Positions 7,001 through 56,515 of a stretch of 64,000 bases of DNA are shown piece after piece. This DNA comes from Bilabrum cf. latius (taxonomy: Eukaryota). The position numbers and the translations under genes were made by a program. Within the stretch, counting starts at the first letter, position 1. Each line of letters begins with the position of its first letter. The DNA lies in NCBI GenBank assembly GCA_965178125.1, contig OZ237750.1:62001-126000 (forward strand). The letters are read 5' to 3'. The notes beneath the pieces were generated by a model. That model was not told the DNA's origin. It was given only the letters and a program-made list of their open reading frames with translations, and did no database searches.

Positions 7001-7664
7001 GCCGAGTCCCTCGCCTGTCTCGAAATGAATCGCCCCGAGCCTCGCAGCCGCCTCCTGCATGCTTCCGCTCGTTGCTCCTGTCTCTGCGCCCTAGCCAACC
7101 GAGTGGAGGCTCTTCGCATCCCTTGCGAGGGAAGAGGCGGTCGATGGAGAGGATGAGCCTGAGGGCGAGGATGTCCGTCCTCCGAATCCTGCAGTCTGTC
7201 TCGCCTCGTGAGTCACTCGAGCCTTGAACACGCTGTTTGCTACTCCTAAAAGCGCATCGCCGGCGTCATCCCCACTGTCCATCTTGCCTGCATCCTGAGA
7301 TTCGCCGGCTTTTTCCACTGAAAGCGGGCAGCAAGGCCCAAAGCCACGGACCATAAGGGCCGGCAGCACGCTCGGGTGTGGGTGCACAAATACACCCCTG
7401 ACTGATCCTGGCGGGAGGCCCTGGGACCTCTGTTGGAACGCCGCAAGCAGGCCTGGGTTGTGCAGGCGCAACACGCCAGACACCGCGAAGCGACCAAATT
7501 GAGTTCTCGCTGGACCAGAAGCATTGAAGAACCCTGGGCGCACGTTGCTCATTGCTGCAGTTTCACACCTATGAAACTGCCCCAGGCTTCGTGGGAGCCA
7601 CTGCAGTCTAAGGCTGCCGCAGGACTCTGCGGCGAGATGCTAAGACATCGTTTCTAAAGCATGC
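4025..7664 (-). CDS. ~1,200-aa uncharacterised protein with a PARP/ADP-ribosyltransferase-fold-like domain split by low-complexity inserts; 5' exon unresolved
   Basis: ORF pieces 7091-7552, 6878-7060, 6566-6820, 5474-6289, 4604-5431, 4025-4537 share one frame, joined at TAGs, and end in TGA 4025-4027. Segments VLRLHNPGLLAAFQQR, IRVAVLCRSIIPG and GEFAFFHPEQLLPEFVILYR resemble PARP-fold strands (LRRC9-type). CAG acceptor just upstream of 7664. Confidence 0.6.
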
Positions 7665-8370
7665 CTGCACAAAGCAGTCTCTGCCGATCTAGAGGCCAGT
7701 CTCTGATCCAAACATAATCGAAATGCTAGCTATTGTACTAGCGAAGCTGACTAGAATGCGAATCGAGCCTAGGATCGTTGGCAAGTAGCCTACTGATGGA
7801 GTTGCACGTCTGCACGTGCAGACGGACTCAGAGTCTTCAGCCTCGACAACGACTCATGTAGTCCATTAAAGCTTAAATTCAAAAGAGCAGGACGGCGCTA
7901 CTCTTGACTGGCGCTGTAATTCTCCAAAGAATGGGAGTCTGGGATGCTGGGGTGCCGTTCAAACTAGCCTCCTCGACTTGGGACGATAATTCTGCCGCCG
8001 GTACCCTGCACGACTTGCTACATGCCTTCAGATCTTATTGCGGAAACCTACATGAATTAGACATTCTGAAAAACTATACTGCGCAAATTCAAATATCAAG
8101 AAAAACCGGAATCACCGGCTTCATCGCGACGGCTGCTGCACCGGCGGTCCGTGCAGCAACTGCAGGCTGACAAATCAGTCCGCATCGCCAGATGGAACTC
8201 CAAGTCACCTGCCCATCCACCTGGTGCGATTAATCCTTCAGCTCTCAGGAACACCAGCACAGGCAGATGGTCCCAGGTCGGACTGGTAATGGCCCCAAGC
8301 AGCTGTGCATTCGATGCCGCCCCGCAAGGCTATTCGCGCTGATTTGACGCCGTCCATTGCATGTGCTATC

Positions 8371-11300
8371 TCACGATATCTACCTCACCGCCCGCTACAT
8401 TGCATCCACCACAAAATCTCCTGCCCGTGCCGCGAGGATCTGCACATTGGTATCAAGCAGCCACCTGCGGATGCGTTCAGCTGCCCCTGGGTTCTTCTTA
8501 GCGTGGGACAGCAAATCTGCAATACGCCCCATCACAGCCGAAATTGGAGTGATCTATCCATCTCCCGCGCCTGCTGTTGGCTTTATCGTGAACGATCTCA
8601 GCGCCACAACGAGCGCAACTACGTGCATCTCGGCAGGACTGCTGTCGGGAAACTCCAGCAGGGTGGCCGTGCCGTGCGTCTCAGCGGCCAGGTGGATCAG
8701 GTTCAACCGAGCTAGAGCAGCCACCAGACTGGCCTTGGTGTATTCTGCTATAGGGTCGTTGGACTCTTCCTCAAACATCCAGACGCTTCCAAGCCGGACA
8801 GCAGCGCGTAGTCCGATGCGAGAGGTGCGCGAGTCGTTGTGTCCTGCCATGCGTGCCAGCTGCACCAGGACCTCGCGCTCTGATGGATCTCCAAGATCTT
8901 CAAGTCGCTATCGCTCCTTCAAAAGAAAAGGTAATGCCTTGGTCGCGCTTGCAACGTCATCAATTGCACCATGAGCTGCAGCTGGTGCGGCCACGCCGGC
9001 TTTTGGAGCATCGCTGGTACTGGCTCCATCAATCGCTAGACCTGCGGCTCCTATTACCTTCGCGCTCGAGGCTCGAACGATGGATGTCTGCACAACCCTA
9101 TTGGGCTCCTGAAAGGGGGTTGTCAGGTTCGGCGGTGGTCGCGAACCAATAACGACACCACGGGATGCGTAGACCCGTGCAGATGCACATGCACCCGCTA
9201 CATTACCTACAACGATAGCACTGCGCTAGCTGACAGCTCTGATGAAAGCTTCGAGTGCTCCACCGGCCGGACTGGATCGTGATGGCAAACCGCAGGTCCA
9301 TTGCAGGTCATCAGGTATATTATCGAAAGAAGCGAGCTTGTCGGCTTCCACGACCTTTCCAAGGCGCCGAAGAGGCAGGCCATTCTCCTTCAATACCGCC
9401 TTCGCGCGCCCACGCAAGACCTTGAACGTTTCATGCGACCGATCGTCGCTCTTGTTCCCGGCAGTATCAGGTTGCGGCTGCTCTTTATCAGTCAAGACAT
9501 CCGCATTCAGATCCTTCAGCCCAGCAGCGCATTTAAAGAGAGCGTCCCGATCCGACATTGATTCGAGCACTTCCTTGATGACCATCTTATCCTACTCTGC
9601 TGAGGCCTCCTGACGTTTTTGTCCGGCAGACATCAGGCAGTCGGGATCGAGCCTGGGCACGCTGCCTTGCTTCTACTTGTCTCGACGTCTCGCCACATCA
9701 GCAGCATCCGGCGGTATCATGCACGACAGCAATGGCATGTCGCCATAATACCATGCAGGGCAAGACACTATGAGAACGTGGCTGAAGCCAGATTCAGGTG
9801 ACTGTGCAAGCCCGAACGCGATTGAGCCGGCTCCGCGTTCAGCAACGAGTGGCACTACAGATCCACCATGCACGCGGAGCTTTGACTCCGACCAGGCCTG
9901 TAACGCGTCCGATACCATAGTTTGGCTACGTAATTGCTTCACAGAGCCAAGTGGCCACTCTAACGGAGCATCAAGCTCGCCGGAGACGACAGAGTGTGAA
10001 CTTTGCGCGTCTACTGCAAAGACTCTAGGCATCATATTGCCAGTTTTGCTCATCTGTTCGATCCAGAAAAAGTCTGAAATCAGCGAGCGGTGCAGATCTA
10101 GCAAGATCTTGCCATGCCGTCTGACCACATGTAGTTCGACATCGGAGGGAAGCTCATGAGAAACAGGTTCCTGTGTCTTCTTTACTGGCTTTCGCACTGA
10201 CACAGGTGACACGTAGACACTGCCGATAGCCTCGAGCTCATCCGCAGTCTCTTCAATTTGCTAATTAGCCAGCCAAGTGGCTTCCTAGCGAACTAGGCCA
10301 TCCCTTTCCATTCCAAACACGAAGTCAAACTCCCGAAGCGAATGCTCTACCACGTGGAGGCAGTGCTTTTTCACGTCTCGAGTCTTGAGCCAAAATGACT
10401 GACCGATGGACTCTATCACAGCTCTAACCGACGATTTTGTTTTGAGGCTGTGAAGTGTGTTTCCTCTATTCATAGATCCCATCACGATAGTCTTCTGCCC
10501 CACTGCTAACATGGGCACCCCGAGCACACGGATAGTCTCCTGGCCGTCGCGCCCAGGCACATCGACCAATGCAAAAGGGGGAATACGTGCACCGACAACA
10601 GCTTGGTACCCCCAAGCCATTGCACTCGCTTCCTATTTCAGAGCCTTGGCTGCCATCACGCTGCTGCCATACCTGGAAGTAGTGCAACCACTAACCTTCA
10701 GGAATAGGCCTCGCTCCGTATCAATTAGTTTGGTAGATCCGCTGCTGCTAGAGCCTTCAGCTGGACCCCCCTGCTTTATACGGATGGAAGAATCGGCAAA
10801 GCTACGTCTGCCGTACAGCACGTCCGCAATCTCTTCCGCTGATCGCTGGACGCTCGCCTCAAAGTCTAGTTCCGTAGATGCGATGCTGGCAGATGCGGTA
10901 CAGGCAGATGTGGCACTAGGGGTTGCGCTAGTAGCACTAGCAGCTGCACCACTGGCGCCTTCATTGATATTATTACCAGCACCGCTGGGTTGTTCAAGCC
11001 AGCGATGCCCCTAGCTGATGGCGGCCGCGGTCTCGTCTGCCTCGGCCGTGGGAGGCCACTTGATTTGGCCGCGTGGTACAGTATCAGGCATTGCAGTAGC
11101 GACGCTCTACAGCTAAAGAGCTCGCCCTGGAGTGTCGAGACTCCATGTCGACGACTATGCACGGCTTCTAACTAAAGTGGCTGCTGTATCACCGGCTCCT
11201 GCCCGCTGGTCGTCGACTCCAGCCCTCGTGCCCCGCAAGACCGATAGCACGTCATCAATGGAAGTCGCACCGAGGGGTCCACCAGAAGGTCTATCATCTG

Positions 11301-14300
11301 CTCCAATGTACGATTCAACACGTTTCCGTGACTTCTTGGGACTGATGACGACATCCACAGCGGTACAGACCGACGCACCAGGAGGCACCTCCGCCTGCAG
11401 CACATCTGCAAGGGGCACTGCTTCGGTCGACTGATCGTCTCTTTCGACCAGCACACGCCCGTCGGAGCTGAGTCGAAGCTAAATTCGTTCGATCTGCTGG
11501 ATCTCGCCAAGGTCCGAATGTGGCTTGATTGACACAGCGAGGCAACCCGGGGTACCAGAGAAACGAATCACAAACGCCGGCCCATCTGTATTTTGAAGCA
11601 TTTCGCTTGCCGCTTCATGGGTCGCAAATGGGACGAAAGCTCCTTCAGGGAGATCGAAGATGCCGTCAATTCGCATGACTCGCTGCAGAGTCTTCTCAAG
11701 CCCCCGTATTTTAAGATGGCATCGGTCGTGCTCAAGCGTATGTGCTCGCGCTTCTTTCTTTGGCGGCGACCTCACCCCAGTGGATGCTGCCACTGCAAAT
11801 GCGTCAGCGTCTATTCCATTCCCGATGAATTCCCGCAACTGATCCGCGGCTCTCTCATGCTAGGCTGTGCCTGAATTCCGGATCTTCCAGTGCCGCAAGT
11901 GGCGGCCTCCCACAATATCAGCGCAAGCATCCAGGGTGGCATTCAGGACAAAGCTGTCAAGTAGGTGCTTGTCAAGTGGCACATAAGGTGCACCCATTGA
12001 TTGGATGGGGTGGCGAGGCGGGCGTTCGACCGCCACCTTACCGACAGATTTCATCTCGTTGTCATCTGCCAGCTGCTGCTGCACCATGGCCTTGCGCCAC
12101 ACGTGTCCGAAGAGGGTGCGGCACTGTTGAATGTGCCTCCAAATCGCCAAGAGACCGTACTGAACAGCATCCAGCCCCCCAATGTAGTATGTTTGCACAG
12201 GCTACTCCCTTAGAGGGACTGCACAGGTAGGAACGCGAGCGATTGTCCACTTGTCGACCTCAGCGGCACGCGAATCCAGCAGACCACGGCCATCTGAGCG
12301 TGAACCCCAGATGTCTGCACTCCGAACCTCACAGACTGCAGCAGCAAAGTCGAGATCGGCCAATTGGAGCATGAACGCATCCTTCTGCTTCTCATCTAGA
12401 GTCTCAAGTCGCCTGCAAATCGCAGCAGGGAGCCTGCTGGAGTCAGTCGGCGCGTCAGGCTCCGATGCACCTGCGGCGGCCAAAACAGCCGCATCATCCC
12501 CTCCAAGCAATCGAGGGTGTATGAAGCGAAAATCGTCGTCCGTTGAAATATCTGCAAATTCTACACCTGAAGTCCCGTGCCGAGTAGCTGTGGCCGCAGC
12601 CAGGGTGCTGCTCTCTTTGCCCCCATGGCCGGGTTTTGGATCCCCGCCAGCTGCAGCAGCTTCAGGAATCGGGCTTGCTTTGCCGAGTTGGTCGCTAGCT
12701 GCGACTGCTACACCAGTCGTAGTCGCTGCTTGCCTAAATCGATCCAACAAGCGTCTCGGCATGAGCCCACAGACAACGTGCCGCACATGGTCTGGTTTCA
12801 GCAAGCAGACCGGAGGTCTCTCTGCGGCGAGTAGTGTCCCGGTTCCTGCCGTGTAAAGAACGCAGGTGCCTTCAGGCCTTGGACGAGACTCTCCACTCTA
12901 AATCAGGCCCATAAGCAGCTTAATGCCCGGGTGGTCGATGGGGTCTTCAAGATCGAGACCGTTGGTCTGGGCAAGCTGAAGGTCGAGCCCGAGCGTGACC
13001 ATCGTCTTTTCAGTGCTCAAACTCGAATGATCGGTGCGTTCTACTCGGTGTCTTGCACGATACAATAGAGGACGGTATCCTCTCAATCGATCAGGCTATG
13101 AGCTCGCCCTTGTGCTCCCTTCCGGTGACCTCCACGTGTCTCTGGCACGCCTTACATCTGCAGTAGACAGGTGAGCGTCGAGCCCATCGATAAGAACAAG
13201 TACATTCTTCCAGCGTTCGAGCTCCTATGCAACCGTATCTAAACTGTCGCAGTTCAAAATACGGGAGTATCTCACGAGCCATTCCCGCTCGTGCACCGTG
13301 TGCACCTCGTGAGTGCCTTGTAGTCGCACGATGTGCCTGAGAATGCCGGCACACACGCATGCCTTCAGTCTACGAATCAGGGCCCGCTCCATCTTACTCC
13401 AAAGGGTTGCATGCGCGCGGGCTCGTTGCACTCTCCCGTGGACTACCTACATGGGAGACCGGATGTGCTGCGCTCCGCCTGCTTGTGTTGCCAACCGCCA
13501 CCCCTCTAGCTCCCAGGCCTCCATAGCATCACCAATGGGCAGCTCTTCAATGGATGTCGCAGCAAGGATGTCACCGACAGGCACAAAAAAGACGCCCCCC
13601 GTGAATCTATCGCGCCAGCGAGCATGCCTACCAACGGCCATCACAACAGAAGTCTTGCCGGACCTTGGCCATCCTAGCAGGCCGATGCACTGAGCGGATC
13701 GCTTGCTAACATCTTCGGGGTCCAGCACGTCCATGATTTGTGTGAGACCGACGCGGTTGTGCGCCAGAAGCGACTGCTCGACCTCAGTGGTAGCGCTCGC
13801 TGGATCGCTTGGACTACCGCTGGTGTGCTGCAATGGGGAGGGCACGAACCACGGCATCCGATCGAGATTTGCGGAGGAAACGCTGGCGTGCCCTGACGAT
13901 TCGCTGCTCCCTGCTCCTGACGAAGGGCCGGGGCCTGAGAGATCCTGGATGAACGCAACTGCTGGGTCTCGCCGAGCGACCGGCTCGCAAAAGACCATAT
14001 CGCCAACAGGATCGCCAGTCTCTGGATCGAACGCCTCCGTGGGTGGTCGAGCTGTGCGGGTCATGGAGGATAAGCCCCTCATCGGATACGAGCTCGCGAC
14101 TGCGATGCTTGACTCAGCCACCCGCCGTGATAGACTGCCGCCTGCGCCTCCTGATGGCCGTCTCTTGTCTGATTGCACCGTTGCTTCCGTTTGTCGGAGC
14201 TCTGCATCACCTATACCGTACTATTCGATCCGCGAGGGGTCTGACCCTGCACTCGCGGCTGCCACTGCCGGCCCACCTGAATTCGACCGCATTACCACTA

Positions 14301-17300
14301 TTGGGCCATCAAGCGGGGCAGTCTTCTCAAAATGTAGCACATCATTTGGTGGCGTCTTTTCCGGAAACAACAGTCCCACTGATAACGGCTCCGGATCCAG
14401 TCCGTTCTTAAGTGCGGTCTTCTCGTCATGTCCCTTGGAAAATTGATGTATACTGCCACTGCCCTTGAGGTGGACCCCCACTGCCAGAGCAGGCCGCTGT
14501 GCAAGACCCGATAAATGCTGCATGAAAATTTGCTTGAACCGTGGGCTGCTTCCGTTGGCCAAGCACTTGAGGTTTGCGGTCAGCTGCTCAAGCTTTGTCG
14601 CGCAATCGGACCGCAGGTGTTCGATCGACTCGAATGGGGCCACTGGCTAGCCCCTAAAAACGCGCCTGGCCTACTCAAGCAGGGCAAGCGACTCTGGCAG
14701 ACTTGGTTCACGCAACCTAGGGCTGCTGCTTCCTAGTGTGTCGAAGTTGATCTGCACCCCGTCCATGCCCTCCAGCAGTCTCCTTGGTAGCAGTCCGCAC
14801 ATCACGTGGCGGTACGGACTACCAAGCTCCCCAGGCAGCTTGTTACTGCCCAGTACAGTCCCTGTCCTAGCGGTGAATAGAACAGACGTGCCCCCGGGCA
14901 GTCGGTGAGCCATGAGATCGCCGATGAGCTGCACTATGGGATGCTGCGTGGAGTCCTGCAGAACCTGCTGGGTAGCTCCAGAGCCGTCTCCCTGCAGCTT
15001 CGAAGGATCCAAGAGAACTGTTGCCCCATCAACGATCACTAGCGCGCGCCTCTGCATCTCCATGGTGTTGCCAAGGGCCTTGAAGGAGCTAGCTGCCTCG
15101 ACAGCTGTCAGCCGCTCCGCCCACGCTATTGCATGATCGTGCGATCCACGCACACCTTCTTTCCCCAGGGCAGTCATGCGCTACACGTGACGGCGAATAC
15201 CGGAACCGATGCATTCCTTTGCCCTCTTTAGGAGCTAGTGTTCCATGAAGGACCATATCGTGCCGTGCTGGTGCCCCCGAGTCGAGTCGCCTGCAGCACT
15301 GCTACTGAAGGAGCCTTGCGCTGCGCCAGAGCTAAAGTGACCTTGCGCCAAGTCACCCACCGGCAAGTAGTAGACCCCTCCGCTGTATAGGCAGGAGCGT
15401 ACCGCTTGATTGTACATGGCTACGGCACCAAGCGTCTTCCCGGATCCTTGCGGACCAACCAGACCGACGAGCTGACTGGACCCAGAGATCGGCGCCAGCA
15501 GCAGCGCCGCCTTTTCAAGCCCATCGGAATTGACCAAGCATGCACTCCCAACCTCGTCGCCTGGGATTTTACCCCACAATACTGAAGGGAAGCTCTGCGG
15601 CGCCGAGAGGATTGGCCTGGTCTACTCTTCGGGTTCTATAGCTGCAGGTGCGCTGCCAGGCAACTGCAGACTTGGTAGCAGCCGCTTGCCTAACGCATTT
15701 GGCATGGAATACTCACGTAAACTGCTGCCTTCTTCGCTAACTAGCCTGTCAATGGAATCTAGAACCTCCTGTGGCTCTAAATCACGCCTGCTATCACGCA
15801 AGTGTGAGGCACCTAGCCCAAGAATTAGTCTGGCAGATTCCGGGTCTCTACACAGGGAAACTGCATGCCCTAGAGAAAGCCTGTCAGCCTTGGAAATGTC
15901 GAAACGTAGCAATTGGCTGGCTTCTACAGTTTGAAGCAGTTTTTGCTGCTCAGTCTCTGGAAGAGCGTGCAGAACTTGGCGTGGAAGCAGTCCGCACATC
16001 ACGTGGCGGTACGGACTACCAAGCTCCCCAGGCAGCTTGTTACTGCCCAGCACAGTCCCTGTCCTAGCGGTAAATAGAACAGACGTGCCCCCGGGCAGTC
16101 GGTGAGCCATGAGATCGCCGATGAGCTGCACTATGGGATGCTGCGTGGGATCAACAAGCGAGCTAACGTGCTACGCTGCCGCGGCTTCGTGTGGATCTTG
16201 AGCAAGGGGATCAAGCCTAGCATCAGCGCCATCCACCAAGACAAGAACGTTTTTCCATCCTTCAAGTTCTTCTCCCACCTCTCTAAAGGAGTCGCTGCTC
16301 GTAATGCGGTCGACGCGAGACGCCCAGGTTGCCTACAGACGGTGCGCCTCCGCAGGAGACAGGTGAGGGGACCCGCTAGATCGCAGCACAGCCAGGAAGT
16401 TCCTGACTCCAAGACTTACAACGGATTTCAGTCGCTGAAGAAGGTGATGCTCCATGCTTGACCAGAAGCCATTTACATCACTGGATCTGGTGCTATCGCC
16501 AGCCATAGGTGTCTCGGCATCTGCTGCACCGGCGCCAGAGCTGGCACCTGCCCCGCTGTGTGGGTGCGGGGAGGAGTCGGGTACCCCAACTGCAGCAGCT
16601 GCCATGCCAACGCCTTCATGCTCCATTTCTGCGCCGTAGCTATCAGGCGCGGGGAAGTCCTCAAGTCTCACAGCCGCTGCAATGTCACCAATCGGCAGGA
16701 AGAAGACGCCGCCGGGATGGGTCTCTAAGTTGACAGCATGCCGAGCCATCTTCAGGGCTCCGATGGTTTTGCCGGCAGATACAGGGCCAATCAGACCAGT
16801 CAATTCCGCAGTCCTTCCGACTGTACTGGCACTCAACAGCGTCTACACGGTTCCGAGGCCCCCTTTGTTCAGCAGCAGGATATTGTCGGTCGTCGACCCC
16901 TTGATTTCCCCCTCTTTAGGAATGAAGGCTGGCGCGAAGCTGTCTGGGCCAAGCATTGCGGCAGGGGCATCTATTCCTGCAGCAGCAGCAGCAGCAGCAC
17001 GGGCGCAAGCCTGCAGTCTCGCTTGCGCTTCAAACAGCCCTATGGCGTGGAGAGATGCTGGCCGAATGCTCACGTCGCCTTCCGTCCGCTAGGCAATCAA
17101 GTTCATGACGCCCTCGTGCTTGTAGGTGTACAACTGCCAAGAGGGCATGATAAGGGCCGGTTGTTTGTCTTCCTCATTCTCGCCTTCCTCTACCTTCCCT
17201 TCCCCCAGCTGGCTCGAGAGCACTTCCTCTTGAGCCGCTGTCAACGCTGCATTGACTCTACCAAACGATCTCGGCAGCTTGGAAGCAAGGGCATGAACAA

Positions 17301-17963
17301 AAGCACTGACAGTCTCTTCTGCAACACCGCCCGTGTCGATTGCGATTACAAAGGGTACTCCGGCAGCGCACGCGCGCAGACCGATGCTCGCTGCTCCATG
17401 CTCCTGGTGCACGATAAGAATAGAGGCGGGCATGCGTTGCTGCTCCATCCCATGCCCCGCTCTTCCATTCAGACCACGTCCGATTGCTCTCGCTAGCTGC
17501 TCACCCGTGACTGTATCATACCCCGCTGGGTTTGGCTGCGCCGAGTGCAGGTGGATGCACGGCTCCTGGCCTTCGTCAGCCAGAACAGGAGCAGACAGCA
17601 CGACCACATCTGACTTGCCACCGCAGATTGCTCCGGCAATCGATGGTAGCGTTGCAGTTTCGATCCGCTTGCAGGGAAGGCACCCGGCAACCAGTGCTGA
17701 TTTCCATGTGTGATCTTGGCCCGTTGATTCCGTGCCCCAGTACGACACATTCATTTCAAAGCTACCCTCAGCAGCTTGTCCAGTCCAATGTGCACCATAA
17801 AGGTCCGCTTCGGCTTGCTATGTATCCAGACTTATCATAGCTTCTTGTTCCGATTGCAACCCGTAATTATCAGGTGGCAAGAGTACTGGTGCCCCCATTG
17901 GCAAACCGAAGTCGTCTACGAGCTAGAACACGGACTTTGCGCCAGCCGGAGTCATCCCAGGTA
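8371..17963 (-). CDS. 3' part of giant multidomain protein: degenerate CHAT-like domain, three P-loop NTPase (STAND/NB-ARC-like) modules, SH2-like domain, possible degenerate kinase-like segment
   Basis: About 20 listed ORFs from 17089-17754 to 8554-8865 lie in one frame, and the gaps I translated contain only TAG. First TGA at 8371-8373. Walker A: GPVSAGKT, GPQGSGKT, GWPRSGKT, each followed by GGV(F/Y)(F/Y)xP(I/V)GD. Walker B-like VLVL(V/I)DG and LVIVDG. SH2-like AASEMLQNTDGPAFVIRFSGTPGCLAVS (~11540-11620). Confidence 0.8.
14789..14951. repeat. 163-bp near-identical direct repeat, copy 1 (copy 2 at 15986-16148)
   Basis: Both copies encode TQHPIVQLIGDLMAHRLPGGTSVLFTARTGTVLGSNKLPGELGSPYRHVMCGLL; two substitutions seen by eye. 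Confidence 0.9.
15986..16148. repeat. 163-bp near-identical direct repeat, copy 2
   Basis: Matches 14789-14951. Confidence 0.9.
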
Positions 17964-18135
17964 TTAGCAGGTCTGGGGTTACAATCAGTAAGACCGGAAC
18001 TGTAGAAACTGGGATTGATTTGCGTGAAGGCCGACTCATCTTCCCGAGGGTACGCCGAAGATACTGATCTCGGCAGTGCTCAAGAAGACACGTACTACAA
18101 TGTAGTGTAGTTCTGAGTCAGCTTGCAAAAGTTTT
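17964..18135 (+). repeat. Split direct repeat A1
   Basis: TTAGCAGGTCTGGGG...GCAAAAGTTTT, identical by eye to 24085-24256. Confidence 0.95.
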
Positions 18136-18446
18136 AAAAGTTTTCGAGAGGCCTATCGGCTGGCTCCAAGGGCAATCGGGATGTGTTCGTCTCAGGTTGA
18201 TCCCTATAAGGAAAAAGTAAACATAACCCATGTCAAACGCACGCTGGTATATGCACTTATTGCATAGTTGCTGCCAAAGGTCTGCTGCGAGTGCATTTCA
18301 CCCGGCGCTGCTTCATAACGCACACGGCACGTCAAGGCACAACACTGCGCAACTCGACTTATGCTTGTATTGCATCCCATAAACCATAGCAAGGCCGCTA
18401 GTGAATCGTAAATCAAGATTATCATTAACATTGTGTCGCAAACGGG

Positions 18447-21400
18447 GCCTGCCACTGGCCACCTTGCTGCTGTGGGCAGCTTGGCGAGCCTGGGTGGGTT
18501 GCTGCGCGTCGTCCACTTGACGTCCGCTTGCCTTTGTCTGTGATGGCGCCTTGATGCGCCTGCCACTGGCCACCTTGCTGCTGTGGGCAGCTTGGCGAGC
18601 CTGGGTGGGTTGCTGCGCGTTGTCCATTTGACGTCCGCTTGCTTTTGTCTGTGATGGCGCCTTGATGCGCCTGCCGCTGGCCGCCTTGCTGCTGTGGGCA
18701 GCTTGGCGAGCCTGGGTGGGTTGCTGCGCGTCGTCCATTTGACGTCCGCTTGCTTTTGTCTGTGATGGCGCCTGACTGCGCCTGCCACTGGCCGCCTTTG
18801 CTGCTGTGGGCAGCTTGGCGAGCCTGGGTGGGTTGCTGCGCGTCGTCCACTTGACGTCCGCTTGCCTTTGTCTGTGATGGCGCCTTGATGCGCCTGCCAC
18901 TGGCCACCTTGCTGCTGTGCGCAGCTTGGCGAGCCTGGGTGGGTTGCTGCGCGTCGTCCATTTGACGTCCGCTTGCCTTTGTCTGTGATGGCGCCTTGAT
19001 GCGCCTGCCACTGGCCACCTTTGCTGCTGTGGGCAGCTTGGCGAGCCTGGGTGGGTTGCTGCGCGTCGTCCATTTGACGTCCGCTTGCCTTTGTCTGTGA
19101 TGGCGCCTTGATGCGCCTGCCACTGGCCGCCTTTGCTGCTGTGGGCAGCTTGGCGAGCCTGGGTGGGTTGCTGCGCGTTGTCCATTTGACGTCCGCTTGC
19201 CTTTGTCTGTGATGGCGCCTTGATGCGCCTGCCGCTGGCCGCCTTGCTGCTGTGGGCAGCTTGGCGAGCCTGGGTGGGTTGCTGCGTGTCGTCCATTTGA
19301 CGTCCGCTTGCCTTTGTCTTTGATGGCGCCTTGATGCGCCTGCCACTGGCCGCCTTTGCTGCTGTGGGCAGCTTGGCGAGCCTGGGTGGGTTGCTGCGCG
19401 TCGTCCATTTGACGTCCGCTTGCCTTAGTTTGGGATGGCGCCTGACTGCGCCTGCCACTGGACGCCTTTGCTGCTGTGGGCAGCTTGGCGAGCCTGGGTG
19501 GGTTGCTGCGCGTCGTCCATTTGACGTCCGCTTGCTTTTGTCTGTGATGGCGCCTTGATGCGCCTGCCACTGGCCGCCTTTGCTGCTGTGGGCAGCTTGG
19601 CGAGCCTGGGTGGGTTGCTGCGCGTCGTCCATTTGGCGTCCGCTTGCCTTTGTCTATGATGGCGCCTTGATGCGCCTGCCACTGGCCGCCTTTGCTGCTG
19701 TGGGCAGCTTGGCGAGCCTGGGTGGGTTGCTGCGCGTCGTCCATTTGACGTCCGCTTGCCTTTGTCTGTGATGGCGCCTTGAAGCGTCTGCCATTGGCCA
19801 CCTTGCTGCTGTGCGCAGCTTGGCGAGCCTGGGTGGGTTGCTGCGCGTCGTCCATATGACGTCCGCTTGCCTTTGTCTGTGATGGCGCCTTGATGCGCCT
19901 GCCACTGGCCACCTTTGCTGCTGTGGGCAGCTTGGCGAGCCTGGGTGGGTTGCTGCGCATCGTCCATTTGACGTCCGCTTGCCTTTGTCTGTGATGGCGC
20001 CTGAATGCGCCTGCCACTGGACGCCTTTGCTGCTGTGCGCAGCTTGGCGAGCCTGGGTGGGTTGCTGCGCGTCGTCCATTTGACGTCCGCTTGCCTTTGT
20101 CTGTGATGGCGCCTGACTGCGCCTGCCACTGGCCGCCTTTGCTGCTGTGGGCAGCTTGGCGAGCCTGGGTGGGTTGCTGCGCGTTGTCCATTTGACGTCC
20201 GCTTGCCTTTGTCTGTGATGGCTCCTTGAAGCGTCTGCCATTGGCCACCTTGCTGCTGTGCGCAGCTTGGCGAGCCTGGGTGGGTTGCTGCGCGTCGTCC
20301 ATATGACGTCCGCTTGCCTTTGTCTGTGATGGCGCCTGACTGCGCCTGCCACTGGCCACCTTGCTGCTGTGGGCAGCTTGGCGAGCCTGGGTGGGTTGCT
20401 GCGCGTCGTCCATTTGACGTCCGCTTGCCTTTGTCTGTGATGGCGCCTTGATGCGCCTGCCACTGGCCACCTTTGCTGCTGTGCGCAGCTTGGCGAGCCT
20501 GGGTGGGTTGCTGCGCGTCGTCCATTTGACGTCCGCTTGCCTTTGTCTGTGATGGCGCCTGACTGCGCCTGCCACTGGCCGCCTTTGCTGCTGTGCGCAG
20601 CTTGGCGAGCCTGGGTGGGTTGCTGCGCGTCGTCCATTTGACGTCCGCTTGCCTTTGTCTGTGATGGCGCCTTGATGCGCCTGCCACTGGACGCCTTCGC
20701 TGCTGTGGGCAGCTTGGCGAGCCTGGGTGGGTTGCTGCGCGTCGTCCATTTGACGTCCGCTTGCCTTTGTCTGTGATGGCGCCTTGATGCGCCTGCCACT
20801 GGCCGCCTTTGCTGCTGTGCGCAGCTTGGCGAGCCTGGGTGGGTTGCTGCGCGTCGTCCATTTGACGTCCGCTTGCTTTTGTCTGTGATGACGCCTTGAT
20901 GTGCCTGCCACTGGCCGCCTTTGCTGCTGTGGGCAGCTTGGCGAGCCTGGGTGGGTTGCTGCGCGTCGTCCATTTGACGTCCGCTTGCTTTGTCTGTGAT
21001 GGCGCCTTGATGCGCCTGCCACTGGACGCCTTTGCTGCTGTGCGCAGCTTGGCGAGCCTGGGTGGGTTGCTGCGCGTCGTCCATTTGACGTCCGCTAGCC
21101 TTTGTCTGTGATGGCGCCTTGATGCGCCTGCCACTGGACGCCTTCGCTGCTGTGGGCAGCTTGGCGAGCCTGGGTGGGTTGCTGCGCGTCGTCCATTTGA
21201 CGTCCGCTTGCTTTTGTCTGTGATGGCGCCTTGATGCGCCTGCCACTGGCCGCCTTTGCTGCTGTGGGCAGCTTGGCGAGCCTGGGTGGGTTGCTGCGCG
21301 TCGTCCATTTGACGTCCGCTAGCCTTTGTCTGTGATGGCGCCTTGATGCGCCTGCCACTGGCCGCCTTTGCTGCTGTGGGCAGCTTGGCGAGCCTGGGTG

Positions 21401-21533
21401 GGTTGCTGCGCGTCGTCCATTTGACGTCCGCTTGCCTTTGTCTGTGATGGCGCCTTGATGCGCCTGCCACTGGCCGCCTTTGCTGCTGTGGGCAGCTTGG
21501 CGAGCCTGGGTGGGTTGCTGCGAGTCGTCCATT
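18447..21533. repeat. Minisatellite, 111/112-bp unit, about 27-28 copies
   Basis: Unit GCCTGCCACTGGCCGCCTTTGCTGCTGTGGGCAGCTTGGCGAGCCTGGGTGGGTTGCTGCGCGTCGTCCATTTGACGTCCGCTTGCCTTTGTCTGTGATGGCGCCTTGATGC, head-to-tail with few variants. Confidence 0.97.
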
Positions 21534-21573
21534 GGATAACTTAAGGTTGTGTTACGATGCTCAACCGCGACAT

Positions 21574-22022
21574 CACTAGCCGCCAAGGAGGAGATGACCA
21601 CCCCCAAGGCAGCCTGTGTGAGCAATTGCACCATATGCACCATGAAACAGCTCGACCAGAAGGTCTTGTCATAGCGACAGCACTAGCTGCCAAGGAGGAG
21701 ATGACCACCCCCAAGGCAGCCTGTATGAGCAATTGCACCATATGCACCATGAAACAGCTCGACCAGGATGTCTTGTCATAGCGACAGCACTAGCTGCCAA
21801 GGAGGCGATGACCACCCCCAAGGCAGCCTGTGTGAGCAATTGCACCATGTGCACCATTGGACAGCTCGACCAGGATGTCTTGTCATAGCGACAGCACTAG
21901 CTGCCAAGGAGGAGATGACCATCCCCAATGCAGCCTGTGTGAGCAATTGCACCATATGCACCATGAAACAGCTCGACCAGAAGGTCTTGTCATAGCGATA
22001 GCACTGGCGGCCAAGGAGGAGA
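21574..22022. repeat. Minisatellite, 107-bp unit, first block (~4 copies)
   Basis: Unit CACTAGCTGCCAAGGAGGAGATGACCACCCCCAAGGCAGCCTGTGTGAGCAATTGCACCATATGCACCATGAAACAGCTCGACCAGAAGGTCTTGTCATAGCGACAG. Confidence 0.95.
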
Positions 22023-22838
22023 ACATCTACTAGCGGCGCGACGACAGCACCCCCAGCGCGAGGCGCAGAAGGGCCAGGTCACAGGGCAGCCGCGGTAGTA
22101 GGAAGCAGCACGAACATCAGCACCGACGTAGCAGCAGCAAGGCGGCAGAGTGCCTCCGACGTTCGCACTAGAAGGAGAGGTCCGACTAGGTCACGGCGAA
22201 GGGGGACTCATACTGCCTGTCAAATCCACGGGACCATCCCTTGATGCTAGAGTTAGCCTTGGGGGGACCCGGGAGGAGGCTTCGAGGAATTAGTCGTCCG
22301 CTGTAAAGCAGGCCACCCAGGAGCGAACTCTCGTAGCCCGTCAGGGAGCCAGAGCAGAGCACACCGAGAGGGCTATTGTGGAGCAACGTAGCGGCATGAA
22401 CTCGCAGAGCAGCGCACTGAGGAGCATGCAAGTGCACAGTGGGGACAAACTGTATTGGATGCATCCAGCTACATTCTCAATCTGCACCACGCAGTGTTGT
22501 CCGGTGGCGGAGGTGTTGCACGTCTTACGCAAGTATGGCGCGCCTTTCCACTGGTACCTCGAGCCTGACGCAGCGATCAAGGCTCCACGAGACGGTGGGG
22601 ACGCCGACTGGCACGAAGGTACCTCAACGCAATCAGCCCTGTTTACTGAGATTCGCAAGCAGGTTGAGGCAGGATTCATTCGAGTTACATCGAAACCAGC
22701 AACATCAGATATGCCGAGAGCCTTGCTGGTCCGGAAGTACGCTTGGAAGCTCAGCCCCGGCGTGGGCATGCAGCGACGCATAGTACCAAGTGAATAGGCC
22801 AGGATCGTCGTGGATTTCTCGGGACTACGACCACATGC
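22021..22838 (+). pseudogene. Truncated reverse-transcriptase N-terminal fragment embedded in the 107-bp array
   Basis: Open frame (TAG as sense) reading ...VLHVLRKYGAPF...SALFTEIRKQVEAGFIRVTSKP...LLVRK...PSE*ARIVVDFSGL. This matches the 'EI..l...G.I' and 'R.vvD.s.L' motifs that open retroelement RTs. The frame is cut off by the repeat before any YxDD. Confidence 0.65.
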
Positions 22839-23700
22839 AAAGGAGGAGATGACCACCCCCAAGGCAGCCTGTGTGAGCAATTGCACCATGTGCACCATGA
22901 AACAGCTCGACCAGAAGGTCTTGTCATAGCGACAGCACTAGCCGCCAAGGAGGAGATGACCACCCCCAAGGCAGCCTGTGTGAGCAATTGCACCATGTGC
23001 ACCATTGGACAGCTCGACCAGGATGTCTTGTCATAGCGACAGCACTAGCTGCCAAGGAGGAGATGACCATCCCCAATGCAGCCTGTGTGAGCAATTGCAC
23101 CATGTACACCATTGAACAGCTCGACCAGAAGGTCTTGTCATAGCGACAGCACTAGCTGCCAAGGAGGAGATGACAACCCCCAAGGCAGCCTGTGTGAGCA
23201 ATTGCACCATGTACACCATTGAACAGCTCGACCAGGAGGTCTTGTCATAGCGACAGCACTAGCTGCCAAGGAGGAGATGACCACCCCCAAGGCAGCCTGT
23301 GTGAGCAATTGCACCATGTACACCATTGAACAGCTCGACCAGGAGGTCTTGTCATAGTAACAGCACTAGCTGCCAAGGAGGAGATGCCCATCCCCAAGGC
23401 AGCCTGTGTGAGCAATTGCACCATTTGCAGGGACGCAGCTCGACAACAGAGTTTTGTAAGTTCCGGATGAACAGCACTAGCAACGACAGGACAAAATGAG
23501 CAGCACCATATGCACCATTTGTAAGCTAGACTGGGAGGTCCTGTCGAATGGATAGCACTAACAACGACGAAAGCGATGATCACTCCCGCAGCAACCTGTG
23601 TACTTGAATGCATCTTAGGCACCAGTATTAAGCTCGGCGAGGATTTCGTATATAATTGACATCTCTGGTTGCGATCAACGACTAGGCTCATCGGTGGTAC
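22839..23700. repeat. Minisatellite, 107-bp unit, second block (~5.5 clean copies, then 2-3 degenerate)
   Basis: Same unit resumes at AAGGAGGAGATGACC and decays after ~23430; right boundary approximate. Confidence 0.9.
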
Positions 23701-23931
23701 GGTGAATGCTGCAGATCAGCCACCATAACCTGACAGTTCAACACAACAGTCGATGCAAGTGGCTCCACGGTGGTCACCACCGACAGATGACTACCACTAG
23801 TGGCAAGCAAAGCGGACAGCAGCCATCGTGGCGACTATATCCAAGGAGCGGATTAATGTGACCCACAGGTCAGTATGCGTAGGGCGGCAAGCCGCAGTGG
23901 CCACAGGTGGCCAAATCTGCGGGTCAGTACG

Positions 23932-24256
23932 GCGCAGGCTGCACCAGCAGCCGGGTCCCCTTGTGGCGCCACGGGTGGTCAACCGCCCGAGGAGCCGGGG
24001 CCCAGCACGCCCTCGCATTTTCTAGCAACCCTAACCGGAGGTTCTAGAACTGATTCGATGTAACGTACAAATCAATGTCAGTTTTTAGCAGGTCTGGGGT
24101 TACAATCAGTAAGACCGGAACTGTAGAAACTGGGATTGATTTGCGTGAAGGCCGACTCATCTTCCCGAGGGTACGCCGAAGATACTGATCTCGGCAGTGC
24201 TCAAGAAGACACGTACTACAATGTAGTGTAGTTCTGAGTCAGCTTGCAAAAGTTTT
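23932..24256 (+). repeat. Abutting split direct repeats B1 (23932-24084) and A2 (24085-24256)
   Basis: Junction ...ATGTCAGTTT|TTAGCAGG... is the element's right end joined exactly to its left end. Confidence 0.95.
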
Positions 24257-24811
24257 CCCGCCCACCCGCAAAGTGTAGAGGAAGTGCAGAGAGGAGTGTC
24301 ATGACTCAAGTCCCTGAATGATGGGGCAAAGAGCCCACGCGTACCACAGCAATTTGGAGCGCGAGGACAGCCCAGGGCCTGCGATTTGGCGCAACGATAG
24401 CGCATATCTTGCAGGGCAGGGATCATGACTCAACACCCAGAGGTACAGGGGTCGCCACCGGACACCGAAGGGCGGCACCCAGGATCGCGCGTGAGTTTGT
24501 CGGCATCCTCAGCCAACAAATCACACCGCGGGACAGTCAGCAGAAGACGGGGTCGTCATCTCAACGAGAGGGCGGCACCCAGGCATGGATAGTTTTCTTC
24601 CGGAACATTTTCGGTCTTTATAGTCCAGGCCATGCAGACACTCTGAGGGATTTGGATGTAGGGGTCGTCACCTCACTGAGAGGGCGGCACCGAGCTCGGG
24701 TGACTTTTCCCAGCCACTGGCTGGGTGTTTAGATCTTCGAGCGCATCTGCTTACATTGTATGATTGAATGATACCTCCGGTGGGTAGGCACTTTGCTTAC
24801 CCGCGTCAGGC

Positions 24812-24964
24812 GCGCAGGCTGCACCAGCAGCCGGGTCCCCTTGTGGCGCCACGGGTGGTCAACCGCCCGAGGAGCCGGGGCCCAGCACGCCCTCGCATTT
24901 TCTAGCAACCCTAACCGGAGGTTCTAGAACTGATTCGATGTAACGTACAAATCAATGTCAGTTT
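24812..24964 (+). repeat. Split direct repeat B2
   Basis: GCGCAGGCTGCACC...AATGTCAGTTT, identical by eye to 23932-24084. Confidence 0.95.
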
Positions 24965-27470
24965 CATGCGGAACCCAAAGCTCCCAGGTCTTATCCTTCG
25001 CCAGCTGCGTCTTGCGGCATTCGACCAGAGGCTCCTGGGCTTCTAGCTGACGAAAGGTTATCTAGCTTGGCCATGGCAGTCCAATCTCGTTGGCATTCGT
25101 GATACTCACACGATACCCACTTTGTCCCGACCGATCACCGTTTTCAATTCGAATGCGCACGCCCCACAGATATCGCAGTGCTTCACATCCGACGCGAACA
25201 GCCCCATGGCAATGCATGCCCTCCTGGAGGCCCTGCACGAACTGGCTCACGGGGTCCTCGTGAGCAATCTCGGATTTAAATGGCTCAATGCCGTCCTGCT
25301 CCATGGAGCCGTACACCTTGCCGACAGGGTTGAAATCAGTGGACCCTTCTGCGTCAGGGGTGGACGCTATGGTCTCGAGGCGAGTTCTAAATCTGACGCA
25401 GTCATGAGGCACAAATGATTCTGCCCCAGTGAACAGCTGGGCCACTCCAGCGAACCTCTTAGGTTGCTCGTCTCCTTTCGGACCCCTGCGACAGGAAGTA
25501 CCAGCGGAGGCGGCACCACCTTTGGCCGCACCATGCGAGGATTTGCCTCCTGACCCGGCACCCCCTTCGGCCGCACCATGCGAGGATTTGCCTCCTGACC
25601 CGGCACCATGGGCAGATGTGGTGCAGTCTTGTTTAGAATCGGCAGCAGCTATGCTGCCCCATCGACGAAATTCATAAAGTATTTGTGATGCCAGCTTATC
25701 TTCTTGCGACTGACTTGCTGGCGTCTCTTTACATTCCTACTCGATTGAGTAGATGGTCCCTCTGGTATCGGAATGACCGCTCTCGTCTGCACCACTGGTG
25801 ACCTACCAGTCCGGAGTATCACCTTGGCCCGACCCGGCCTGACCTTTAGCTGCAGTGGATTTAATAGCCGTCTCCCAATCAGTCGGGGTGCTGCCTTCTT
25901 CGCCACCAGAGGGCTCTACTGCGTTGTCCCCCTGATCAGGACTGTCGAAGATAAGCAGGATGCCCCCGTCACTTCTAGCAATCTCGTGTACCGTGGTCGC
26001 AAGCGTCGCGAGATCATGACACTGGAGCACACGTCGCAGGTTAGAGACACAGCGCCGCAGCTGCTCAATAATGGCCGGGGCCTTACCCGAATCCTGTTTG
26101 CGTAGATGGTCCAGGCGGTGCAGGTGGCGCAAGATGCCGGCGCAGATGCAGGACCGGGTGCGAAGCACTGCCTTTGCCGATCTCGATGGCACGCTGGTTT
26201 GCAATTCTTCGGGGGGACCACCTCTTCGAAATATCATGGCCTCCAGGTCGTCTCTAGCGCTAAATCCCCACCTCCTAGCTTCCAAAGCCTCGATCGCCGG
26301 CATGTCGCTTCGGCCATCCACTTCAGCCGCCAAATCATCGCATATATCTTGTAACGACACAAAATAAATGCCCCCGCCGAAGTGCTCTCGCTCTCTGAAG
26401 TAACGCGCTACTTCAAGCGCAGCTGTGGTCTTGCCTGACTTCTGATCACCAGACAGCCCCACGCAACCACCCATCATTAGTTGTTGGATGATGGCGTGCA
26501 TGCCAGTAGCAGTGCTCTATCGGATCTTTTTGAGGGTATCAAAGCCGTGCACCGTCAAATAGAGCGGTGCTGGGGCCAGCCAGGGCTTCCTGTCGGCGCA
26601 GTCCACGATGAGGAGGTTGCGAGCAGCTCGACATGACTCTTCATGCTGGCGTGTCATCTCAGGCAGCGCCAGATGTTGGCTCTCCATAGCTGTAACAGTC
26701 GCTACATACTGCTTGTGTATCTCCTCGCTTTTTCTTTCCGTGATCCCCGTGCTCAGACCCTCAGGCGGCGGGAACAAGTGGATACCCTCGGAGTGCCGCT
26801 TTCCACCGGACCCTCGAAATTGACGCTTTGCGACGTCAAATGCGTGCGACACCTCTGTGCCAAGCGCTAAGCAGTAGTAAAACTCTTCTGCATACTTCGT
26901 GCATAAATCGTCAAACGCTTGTATACTGAAGCCCAGCGTCACTGCCGCTCGCCCTGTGCGCTCGAGACTCTACTTCATCGCCGTCTACAACTCCTTCGCC
27001 AGCCCATACGAGTTACAAGCAGCGAGAAAAATCAAGTCAGGGCACGCTCTACCGCCACGTTCAATGGTCTTGTAGAAATCCTCTACGGTTATCTCTTGAA
27101 CGTTGCCATCTTGATCCTCGAGTAAAATACAAGCTTTGTCACCATGCGCGGCAACATGGAGCACAATGCATGCGCATCTAAGATCTGCAGGTTCCTCTTG
27201 GACGGCTTTGTCTCCGCCTGACTAGAGGAATCGTGGACAACTCTCGAAAACGTGTTGAATATCTTTGGAGGACGGCAAGTTACCGATGGTAGAAGCAACA
27301 ACAATCGGCTTTCCAGATCTCTCTAAGACAGAATATAAACGGTTTATTTCAAAACGAGATCGCATAATGTTCAGCGTTTTCGCTTCACCTACACAAGCAT
27401 TGGCTCCTCCTAAACCATCTTTTCCGGAGCCATAGTAAGGGTCAGCTGTAACATACCACAAACCCTGCAT
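24965..27470 (-). CDS. 5' part of the giant multidomain protein: CHAT (caspase-fold) protease domain plus first P-loop NTPase; start codon tentative
   Basis: One frame through TAGs. CHAT motifs VLHVAAHG (His) and LIFLAACNS (Cys), then AEEFYYCLALGTEVSHAFDVAK. Walker A GDQKSGKT followed by FGGGIYFVSL; Walker B-like LLIFD. Confidence 0.8.
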
Positions 27471-28202
27471 ACTTGCCTGTATTGCTTGGCAATTCTATGG
27501 GCTCTGCGCAAACAAGGGTCTAAAATTCGGCAAGTATGCTGGACATAGGATTTTTGGATACGACTGTCCAATGCAACACTTTGCTTGTTCGACCTCACAC
27601 TATTCGTAGCACGACCGATAAAGACCAGATCTATGTATTGACCAATTGCTGTATGCTATGATTTGTGCAATACCGTTCAAAACGGTGGTAAAGTATGAAG
27701 ATCGGGGTCTTCGACGGGCGGTCTGGCCCAGTGCTGCAACAGATCGTTACTAATAAATTTAACATGATTTTCTGATTTTTGTTGGCACCTGCTCGCAACA
27801 GGGGAGGAGTGTGGTTTCTTTACCCTACAAATTATTCTGGTATTCTGGTATTCTGGAGTAGTACCACGGTCAGGTTGATGGGGTGTTCGGCCCTGGTTCA
27901 CTGCCTACCACTGCAGCACTGCAACCGCGTGGCTCCGACGGGCGATTGATCCTTCGTGTTCGTGCGGGTATTTACCCTCGTTCCTGTTCCCCTACTCCAG
28001 AACTGACAGACAAGGTGGCTGTGGAGATGACTCGCCGAGAGTCATCGCTGCAGTCACGTGGTCTTCAGGCAGAGTGGGTCTCCGGTGACTGGGCCAGTCG
28101 AACTTCAGAGGAGAAGGGCAAGATAAGGAAGGCATGGGCGCACCATGGCCTACGTCTTGAATCTCACCCACAACCTCTGGAGAAGGACAGGCGTGGAGTC
28201 GC

Positions 28203-55700: not shown

Positions 55701-55981
55701 GCCCCTGCAAACCATGCTGCAGCCGCCAAGAAGTACCGAAACGTAAACATCGCTTCACACACCGTGATGAACAGTATCACCTGTGACGTGTGCGAGCTCC
55801 ACACCCTGGAAGCGTGCTGGCCTCCGCAGAATACAACTAGTACGGCTGCTGCACCCACTAATGACATCAATCCACCAATGAAGTACACTGGCGCTAGCGT
55901 GCCGTAGAAATCCTCTCCATCGTCCGTCCCACCACCTGTTGCATTTCCCAGAACTGCGCGCAGCCCAATTGCTGCTGCCAT
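49733..55981 (-). CDS. GPCR-PIPK fusion: N-terminal 7TM receptor and C-terminal phosphatidylinositol-phosphate kinase (~2,080 aa)
   Basis: Five ORF pieces in one frame joined at TAGs 54974, 52994, 52313, 52226, 50630; TGA 49733. 7TM: GQFFAVSSVIWNACW, YYHMAAWG, DCWV. PIPK: SFFCRSRDGMLLLKT, FDLKGS, MDYSLL, GLIDPLQRY, ISAVDPEPYARRF. Confidence 0.9.
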
Positions 55982-56515
55982 GACGACACCACACTCAACT
56001 CAGCACAGGAAAGATATAAAAACTGAGAACTTCTCTATTACAATATTCTCATCTAGACGGATTATCAAACTTGCTGACAGATTGAATCTCCGTCACGAGG
56101 TATATCGGATCGATCCGTGCAAAACAGCACGTGACAAAGTGGCAGGAAAAAGCACGGTCCAGTTGTTGTCAGGATCTGGGAGAGAGACAGAGGGTTAAGA
56201 CCTTATTATTGCTCGTATCATGTAAGTAATATTGACTGTCTAGATAGGATGACGCCACATCTTGCCAGTATAAGTCTGTTTGAGCTGAACTGGACGTCAC
56301 GTTTCGCTGCTAACCAACGTTCCAGCTAATCGCTGTCGACGATGCATGATCCAGGCAGTGTTTGGACCCAGATTTCATGAAGATACATGTTGCATTTTTC
56401 TGGTAGGGGATATAGCGTACTGTTTCGTTGGTTTTTGCTGCTTTGTGTCACTCAATGCGCAGTGCGTGGGATCATTCAAGCTCCCGACAGCTGCATGCCG
56501 CACGAGGTACGTTGA

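Follow-up and report, generated by a model that had tools for sequence, protein, structure and literature searches.

Fungal HET-Q2-like proteins are NLR-like proteins that combine a CHAT protease, a nucleotide-binding oligomerization domain (NOD), and repeats, and their genes are clustered with gasdermin genes (bioRxiv 10.1101/2021.06.03.446900). In Dictyostelium, CldA contains an SH2 domain, a Clu domain, and tetratricopeptide repeats (TPRs), and it works with LrrB in gene regulation (PMC2906285). Wheat WTN1 is a plant NLR with tandem NB-ARC domains. PDB entry 8tl0 is a type III CRISPR protease, SAVED-CHAT. Here, we analyze a giant gene of the eukaryote Bilabrum cf. latius. The gene lies on the minus strand, between 27470 and 8371, of a 64,000-nucleotide (nt) stretch of DNA that we will term the window (GenBank assembly GCA_965178125.1, contig OZ237750.1, positions 62,001 to 126,000 of the forward strand); all coordinates are those of the window. 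We lean toward reading it as one gene, now or until recently, that encodes a CHAT protease, four NACHT-like NTPases, and an SH2-CLU tail. In this genome, its frame is interrupted after codon 835 by an inserted repeat element.

As in the HET-Q2-like proteins, an N-terminal, caspase-related CHAT domain would be fused to P-loop NOD-type NTPases in a eukaryote, with proteolysis presumably induced by proximity. Unlike those proteins, this one would have four tandem NTPases instead of one, an SH2-CLU tail, no WD40, TPR, or ankyrin repeats, and weak membership in the NACHT family. Also, we recognized no gasdermin-like neighbor (the adjoining frame at 4025-8056 belongs to no Pfam family). With the bacterial CHAT proteases (8tl0 and plasmid proteins of Leisingera, Nostoc, and Agrobacterium), it has in common two motifs, HxxxHG and AC(x)S, and a C-terminal helix of the form D..A..FY..L..G, but the identity is 21-28%, the host is a eukaryote, and the partners are NTPase modules instead of SAVED, TPR, or wHTH. 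As in CldA, SH2 is N-terminal to Clu in one non-metazoan chain, and the FLVR arginine is kept. In contrast, CldA has C-terminal TPRs and no protease or NTPase modules, whereas here no TPR was detected and an insert divides the CLU domain. Like WTN1, the protein would combine multiple nucleotide-binding modules in a single receptor-like chain, but WTN1 has two NB-ARC domains and leucine-rich repeats (LRRs), whereas here there are four NACHT-like modules with (in a model) a helical insert of ~100 residues, and no LRR. In full-text searches of the literature, we met CHAT-NLR-like, SH2+Clu, and tandem NB-ARC proteins separately; we did not find the combination, and this absence is no proof.

Under the standard genetic code, 8371-27470 falls apart into many open reading frames of 100-250 codons each. 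If TAG is read as a sense codon, the minus strand is open from 18117 to 8371 (3,248 codons with 33 TAG and no TAA or TGA) and from 27746 to 24729 (1,005 codons with 10 TAG). Deleting the 7,001 nt at 17964-24964 fuses both frames in phase (...KTWELWVPH-V-PGMTPAGAK...). The fused frame runs from the ATG at 27470 to the TGA at 8371-8373 and has 12,099 nt, or 4,032 codons plus the TGA; 40 of the codons are TAG, and neither TAA nor an inner TGA occurs. When the mononucleotides of this frame were shuffled 200 times, the number of in-frame TAA and TGA codons averaged 102 and was never below 79. A sequence-only reading of the window had proposed just such a hidden single frame, with the same length of 12,099 nt, visible once TAG is read through and an element is removed, and both parts of that proposal are supported. 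The ends of the element are uncertain by 3 nt (one codon) because deleting 6,998 nt (which leaves TTT) also stays in frame.

TAG is a sense codon in this GC-rich eukaryote, with glutamine as its most likely meaning. The window is eukaryotic nuclear DNA with ~60% GC, and it includes housekeeping genes for SMC, myo-inositol-1-phosphate synthase, Vac14, WASH, a fusion of a seven-transmembrane (7TM) receptor with PIP5K, and a CCR4-type nuclease. Because conserved neighbors also contain in-frame TAG (2 in SMC, 4 in Vac14, 5 in WASH, and 5 in 7TM-PIP5K), the recoding is genome-wide and no peculiarity of the giant gene; the read-through assumed by the sequence-only reading is supported. Most of the long frames of the window terminate in TGA, and none of them contains an in-frame TAA. 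A close relative is represented in databases by nine protein fragments of 85-238 residues each, with 62-81% identity to the gene, which is the kind of fragmentation that had been predicted for annotation with the standard code. At seven of the gene's TAG sites, the relative's residue is Q (three sites), K (three sites), or E (one site), and six of its nine fragments terminate immediately before TAG sites of the gene. Therefore, glutamine fits, and the relative uses the same code. One TAG in WASH lies in a WH2-like motif (LLAEIqAGKKL), at a position that we take to be glutamine in animal WASH. A search of the window for tRNA genes found none.

Are the two halves of the frame one gene? If there had always been two genes, a CHAT-NTPase gene upstream and a gene for three NTPases, SH2, and CLU downstream, then the phases must agree by chance (one time in three) or because the assembly was joined through the repeat. 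An ATG (17955) does lie below the element, at a distance of 9 nt, assembly across 7 kb of satellite is difficult, and our check of the junctions with public contigs (see below) covers the upper one only. We regard two separate genes as very improbable. The host flanks hold neither a stop nor a start signal, and the relative's fragment P0042, which is 81% identical, comes within 33 codons of the junction before it ends, and it ends only where both sequences have a TAG. Instead, both halves probably belong to a single ancestral gene, because the phases match and coding-like sequence reaches both junctions, and because no stop closes the upstream frame ahead of the element and NTPase module 1, above the element, is paralogous to modules 2-4, below it. 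The features of the locus are collected in Table 1.

Table 1. Coordinates of the gene, its predicted domains, the inserted element, and other features of the window
Feature	Position in window	Strand	Basis or remark
5' part of frame	24965..27470	-	codons 1-835 and first base of codon 836
3' part of frame	8371..17963	-	rest of codon 836 to codon 4032, and TGA
Candidate leader exon 1, non-coding	27599..27682	-	X1/X2 contigs end at 27682/27684 without a loose end and join 27599 to 27503
Candidate leader intron, 95 nt, GT..AG	27504..27598	-	skipped in X1/X2 contigs, kept in X4/X5
CHAT (caspase-like) protease core, predicted	26811..27167	-	joined residues 102-220
Catalytic His109, predicted	27144-27146	-	in HVAAHG, joined residues 105-110
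Catalytic Cys152, predicted	27015-27017	-	in LAACNS, joined residues 149-154
P-loop NTPase module 1	25797..26594	-	Walker A GDQKSGKT, Walker B ILLIFD; BLASTP to module 4 E 2.6e-17
P-loop NTPase module 2	15958..16947	-	Pfam NACHT E 0.032
P-loop NTPase module 3	14683..15600	-	best NACHT-like match
P-loop NTPase module 4	12652..13863	-	BLASTP paralogy and motif alignment
167-nt tract	14785..14951 (module 3) vs 15982-16148 (module 2)	-	98.2% identical
SH2-like domain	11359..11637	-	residues 2161-2253 of 3' frame (P0001)
CLU (clustered mitochondria) domain, split by insert	10018..10755	-	Pfam and homologs
Conserved post-CLU region	9013..10017	-	VSCPxWYxG, PDC, and SPAGxAL blocks, common to metagenomic homologs
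Inserted multi-copy element	17964..24964	.	7,001 nt, two head-to-tail units
Element unit 1	17964-24084	.	
Element unit 2	24085-24964	.	
112-nt satellite array, unit 1	18447..21533	.	27.6 copies
107-nt arrays, unit 1	21567-22022 and 22836-23424	.	
TAG-as-sense frames, examples	43631-47674, 37938-40412, 1-1792, 49733-55999		conserved housekeeping genes

Sequence comparisons confirm a predicted N-terminal CHAT domain with an intact His-Cys dyad, as the sequence-only reading had proposed from the motifs. Our reference was an alignment built from the CHAT domains of six plasmid proteins, each of which passes Pfam CHAT (best E 3.7e-35). When the domain was combined with the relative's fragment and compared to this alignment with hhalign, the score was 97.7% (E 1.9e-12, 107 columns). 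HVAAHG falls on the invariant H176/G179/H180 and LAACNS falls on the invariant C221, and the register is the same against 8tl0, which matches the N-terminal 328 residues across both motifs (E 0.0016). The same residues scored 13.7 bits with Pfam CHAT (PF12770), which is under its cut-off of 24. In a tblastn search against plasmids, the best match had E 2e-4, and 7 of 12 records were annotated as CHAT. A word-based search for homologs of near length with the N-terminal 560 residues found none, and a PDB sequence search with the region just upstream of the element gave nothing useful. A second, degenerate CHAT-like region had also been claimed, and this did not hold up (BLASTP against the real CHAT domain, E=2; nothing in PDB; hhalign 0.8%).

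The four modules of ~300-400 residues are, to judge from their sequences, certainly paralogous P-loop NTPases with intact Walker A and B motifs. GxxxxGKT P-loops are located at residues 341, 1228, 1672, and 2266 of the joined frame, an hhhhD Walker B is present in all four, and the modules are similar to each other by BLASTP (E 1e-8 to 6e-61). Modules 2 and 3 have probably undergone intragenic gene conversion, because they share a nearly identical 167-nt tract (Table 1) and are otherwise 47% identical. As to the family, the whole 3' frame matches Pfam NACHT (PF05729) with 31.9 bits (E=1.5e-7, cut-off 26.7), and single modules score 25.6 (module 3), 14.5, none, and none. Modules 2-4 have an hhhTA[RG]TG strand that resembles the 'TSR' motif of NACHT, and module 1 has weak matches to AAA_16 and nSTAND3. 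Of the "four STAND-like NTPases" in the sequence-only reading, the four tandem P-loop modules stand, while the STAND part comes down to a single Pfam NACHT match and a motif pattern. An AlphaFold model of module 3 (predicted local distance difference test score, or pLDDT, of 49.5) has a helical insert of ~100 residues between strand 2 and Walker B. Searching plasmids with module 3 (tblastn) gave two irrelevant rows, a word-based search for homologs of near length with the NTPase region (380-1830) found none, and PADLOC and NCBIfam scans gave insignificant rows only.

The low-complexity linker that follows module 1 contains, at 25493-25582, a 45-nt tandem duplication (78% identical) that encodes GAGSGGKSSHGAA(E/K)G. 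The contig depth is doubled at this duplication.

The SH2-like domain of the sequence-only reading receives moderate support from several weak and concordant results. Its FVIRFS motif is at joined residue 2966, with the arginine at 2969. Pfam SH2 (PF00017) matches with 15.9 bits (E 0.014), under the cut-off of 21. A three-sequence profile run against PDB gave five matches, all to SH2 domains (Grb2 and ITK, E 0.85-1). In Grb2, FLIRIS is the counterpart of FVIRFS, which includes the FLVR arginine of strand B, and in ITK it is FMVRDS; FVIRFS is also kept in the relative's P0005. A phmmer search of PDB with the single sequence of this piece gave no matches. In an AlphaFold model of the region, residues 172-265 follow the order of secondary structures in SH2. 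With this low-confidence model, 36 of 45 Foldseek rows are SH2 (best E 0.011, TM ~0.5 on the target). VIA gave SH2 for 50 of 50 rows (Z 5.3-6.8), and these rows are Foldseek's own list re-scored; 49 of them cover 76-89 residues at a root-mean-square deviation of ~3-4 A, and the exception is 2el8 (102 residues, 11.1 A). As the weak lines all agree, we are fairly confident of an SH2 fold for this region. The region before it gave nothing useful in a PDB sequence search.

The segment after SH2 is, by homology, a CLU domain split by an insert. Directly, Pfam CLU (PF13236) matches with 17.4 bits (E 0.0041), under its cut-off of 24. When the last 1,149 residues were searched exhaustively against 1.84 billion representative proteins, 33 matched: six fragments of a close relative (67-78% identity) and otherwise metagenomic proteins (29-64%). 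Of 20 of these homologs that we scanned for families, four had CLU at E<=0.01, two of them weakly, and 16 had no family. P0026 (27.6 bits) and P0027 (48 bits) are over the CLU cut-off, and they match our query at E 9.9e-7 and 1.8e-6, respectively. Pfam found no TPR family in the last 849 residues, and phmmer against PDB gave no matches for them. The sequence-only reading ended with a weak kinase-like segment; we found no Pkinase (PF00069) row at E<=10, and CLU is the sole family match. That reading also missed that the combined SH2 and CLU tail has a described counterpart, CldA.

The element that splits the gene is multi-copy, and its insertion breaks the frame in the present-day genome, another point that had been missed. 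Its two units share a 172-nt low-coordinate end (17964-18135 = 24085-24256) and a 153-nt high-coordinate end (23932-24084 = 24812-24964), both 100% identical. Between these shared ends, the interiors are wholly different (555 nt in unit 2 vs. 5,796 nt in unit 1). The long "open reading frames" within the element are satellite artifacts. We found no open reading frame of the element's own, no inverted repeats (including terminal inverted repeats), no target-site duplication, and, in an Rfam scan of the whole window, no matches and hence no family in the element. A metagenome scan with the element's end gave no matches either. We reject a Helitron because the ends are not TC...CTRR and the host site is GGTA|CATG, and a simple tandem duplication as the source of the repeated ends because the interiors are wholly different and the ends are multi-copy genome-wide.

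Public contigs of four sequencing runs (X1, X2, X4, and X5) were aligned over 23560-27900, which covers the upper junction (24965/24964). In all four, the depth of the element was 9-16 times the depth of the gene, and there were loose contig ends at 24256 and 24965 that lead to other flanks. Given this excess depth and these loose ends, the element belongs to a multi-copy family, mobile or repeat, whose ends are conserved and whose interior varies. The listed records of X1, X4, and X5 leave the gene and continue unbranched through 25-29 nt of the element, so the DNA or RNA that dominates in these runs carries the insertion, and we reject precise excision (of RNA or DNA) as the dominant form. 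There was no empty-site form among the listed contigs, and contigs may drop rare variants. The insertion looks recent, because the duplicated ends do not differ and no stops have yet accumulated in either half of the gene.

Two further observations concern the element. Its family is plentiful in the possibly-RNA runs (see below) as well, and its high-coordinate end folds well as single-stranded DNA (z −3.3).

What is made from the gene today? The contigs of X1 and X2 suggest that these runs are RNA. They lack a 95-nt stretch (27504-27598) of the form GTGAGG...TTGCGCAG, their contigs end at 27682/27684, and they nearly lack a repeat upstream of the gene (27765-27900), which is at 0.1-0.2 times the depth of the gene in X1 and X2 and at 42-49 times in X4 and X5. 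We lean toward RNA because of these three features; the run records are silent on the type, and X1 was alternatively rated "probably DNA". Splicing of an intron or, alternatively, a presence/absence polymorphism would account for the 95-nt stretch. The leader has no ATG before 27470, and there is an in-frame stop upstream. If X1 and X2 are RNA, then the 5' half is transcribed, its leader is spliced, and transcription reads through into the element at undiminished depth. The upstream frame extends 78 codons into the element before a TAA (24729-24731), so the full-length protein of 4,032 residues is probably not made today; we take it to be the ancestral product. A truncated product with CHAT and the first NTPase, and possibly a separate downstream product as well, is more likely at present than the full length.

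Alternatively, a full-length or nearly full-length protein could still be made if the element were spliced out via sites in its own ends, leaving a short in-frame insert. GT..AG introns appear to be present in this genome, and both ends of the element are open in the gene's frame (for 78 codons on the 5' side and 51 codons on the 3' side). There are 14 candidate donors and 14 candidate acceptors, and 43 of the GT/AG pairings yield stop-free joins in phase (for example, GTAAGC 24754 with CTACAG/17999 or CCCCAG/17972, or GTATCA 24774 with TTGTAG/18094). Also, X1 contains 0.86 of the sampled words from the downstream frame. However, no joint within 23560-24964 was reported in any of the four runs, and open ends of this kind would arise by chance roughly 5% of the time (an estimate from base composition and no computed test). 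With its depth equal to that of the gene and with no branch, the X1 record goes on through 29 nt of the element, past the candidate donor GTACGT 24948, and pairing that donor with CCCCAG/17972, which are the nearest donor and acceptor, would leave 25 nt and shift the frame. We therefore view splicing of the element as unlikely.

If the ancestral protein was as we read it, then it may have worked like an NLR/STAND protein, as a switch or scaffold driven by NTP. The SH2-CLU tail would be the input or docking end and would read signals such as a phosphotyrosine ligand. A signal at the tail would alter the nucleotide state of the NTPase modules and their self-association, and the assembled modules would bring CHAT domains into induced proximity, with cleavage of a target as the output. 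A bolder version of this idea, a single-chain, four-NOD, caspase-like STAND machine that passes a phosphotyrosine input to a CHAT protease in a unicellular eukaryote with a reassigned TAG and is still expressed via splicing of the element at sites in its own ends, seems to us distinctly unlikely.

Several results weigh against the reading of one gene with CHAT, four NACHT-like NTPases, and an SH2-CLU tail. First, we found no transcript and no sequence from the relative that bridges the insertion site, and what would connect the two halves is their phase and the paralogy of their modules. Second, the STAND/NACHT affinity of the modules is weak, and we assign it tentatively. With hhalign, the alignment of the modules scored 16% against six cyanobacterial NACHT domains, across the P-loop only. 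The profile of the modules against PDB gave rows at the level of the P-loop, with NLRs at E 0.05-0.9 only. The low-confidence model of module 3 gave AAA+ proteins (HslU, ORC/Cdc6, and Hda) in Foldseek, with a best E of 0.22, and a wide VIA search with it placed a Walker-type ATPase (2qen, Z 5.4) at rank 49, among rows that otherwise reflect a helical hairpin. Third, a Pfam search for a repeat sensor (LRR, WD40, TPR, or ankyrin) found none, at E<=1 with whole frames or at E<=10 with pieces. A repeat sensor is typical of many STAND proteins, yet it is not obligatory. Fourth, each line of evidence for SH2 is below significance, the mean pLDDT of the SH2 region is 36, and the relative's truncated fragment P0005 has no SH2 match. 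Fifth, neither the library of 1.84 billion representative proteins nor the word-based searches yielded a protein of the same architecture, except for the relative's fragments (within the limits of length and sensitivity of these searches). Finally, the function, including any role in defence or cell death, is one that we infer entirely from the fungal CHAT-NOD proteins and the general logic of NLR/STAND proteins.

A serious rival, which we nonetheless consider somewhat unlikely, is that this is no immune or death device. Instead, the protein would be a CldA-like phosphotyrosine/CLU scaffold in ordinary signaling, with AAA+-like NTPases for remodelling or assembly and a CHAT domain that processes a partner. 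The order of SH2 and Clu is as in CldA (PMC2906285), the search for a repeat sensor came up empty, the PADLOC matches were insignificant, and for module 3 Foldseek listed AAA+ proteins, with non-significant E. The sequence-only reading had suggested a search for paralogs; within the window we found none beyond the gene's own modules, so the gene is single-copy there and outside any expanded cluster. In contrast, NACHT is the sole family whose curated cut-off is reached by the modules, and the fusion of CHAT with NOD is described for fungal HET-Q2-like proteins that are tied to the cleavage of gasdermin (bioRxiv 10.1101/2021.06.03.446900). The composition of the giant gene (8000-18000 and 24000-28000) also differs from that of its neighbors: its GC is 0.52-0.58, its GC at third codon positions is ~0.55, and TAG makes up 1.0% of its codons, vs. 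GC of 0.61-0.71 and TAG at 0-0.45% of codons in the housekeeping genes. Lower GC and more TAG fit a fast-evolving gene, weakly. We continue to favor, by a little, one gene that joins CHAT, NACHT-like NTPases, and an SH2-CLU tail.

Some other genes of the window are also worth describing. The frame directly downstream of the giant gene (4025-8056, minus strand) is open for 1,343 codons, 16 of which are TAG. The fusion of a secretin-type 7TM receptor to PIP5K (49733-55999, minus strand) is a single frame of 2,088 codons, of the GPCR-PIPK type. Finally, 60300-61517 (minus strand) has low GC (0.49) and codes for a coiled-coil protein that is highly repetitive, its repeats being KMESK.DEKLERLE; the apolipoprotein-like Pfam rows for this protein are below the cut-off.

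The value of these findings is tempered by the interruption of the gene in the runs that reach the junction and by a function that is assigned by analogy. If the protein is functional, it would be a protist addition to the CHAT-plus-NOD proteins of bacteria and fungi, and it would be unusual in having four tandem nucleotide-binding modules per chain and an SH2-CLU tail that replaces the repeat sensor. The tail would tie it to the little-understood type of SH2 signaling outside animals that CldA and LrrB represent. The gene also illustrates how a reassigned stop codon and a transposon insertion can together hide a 12-kb gene from standard annotation: in public protein sets, the relative's copy of this gene is present only as fragments of 85-238 residues.

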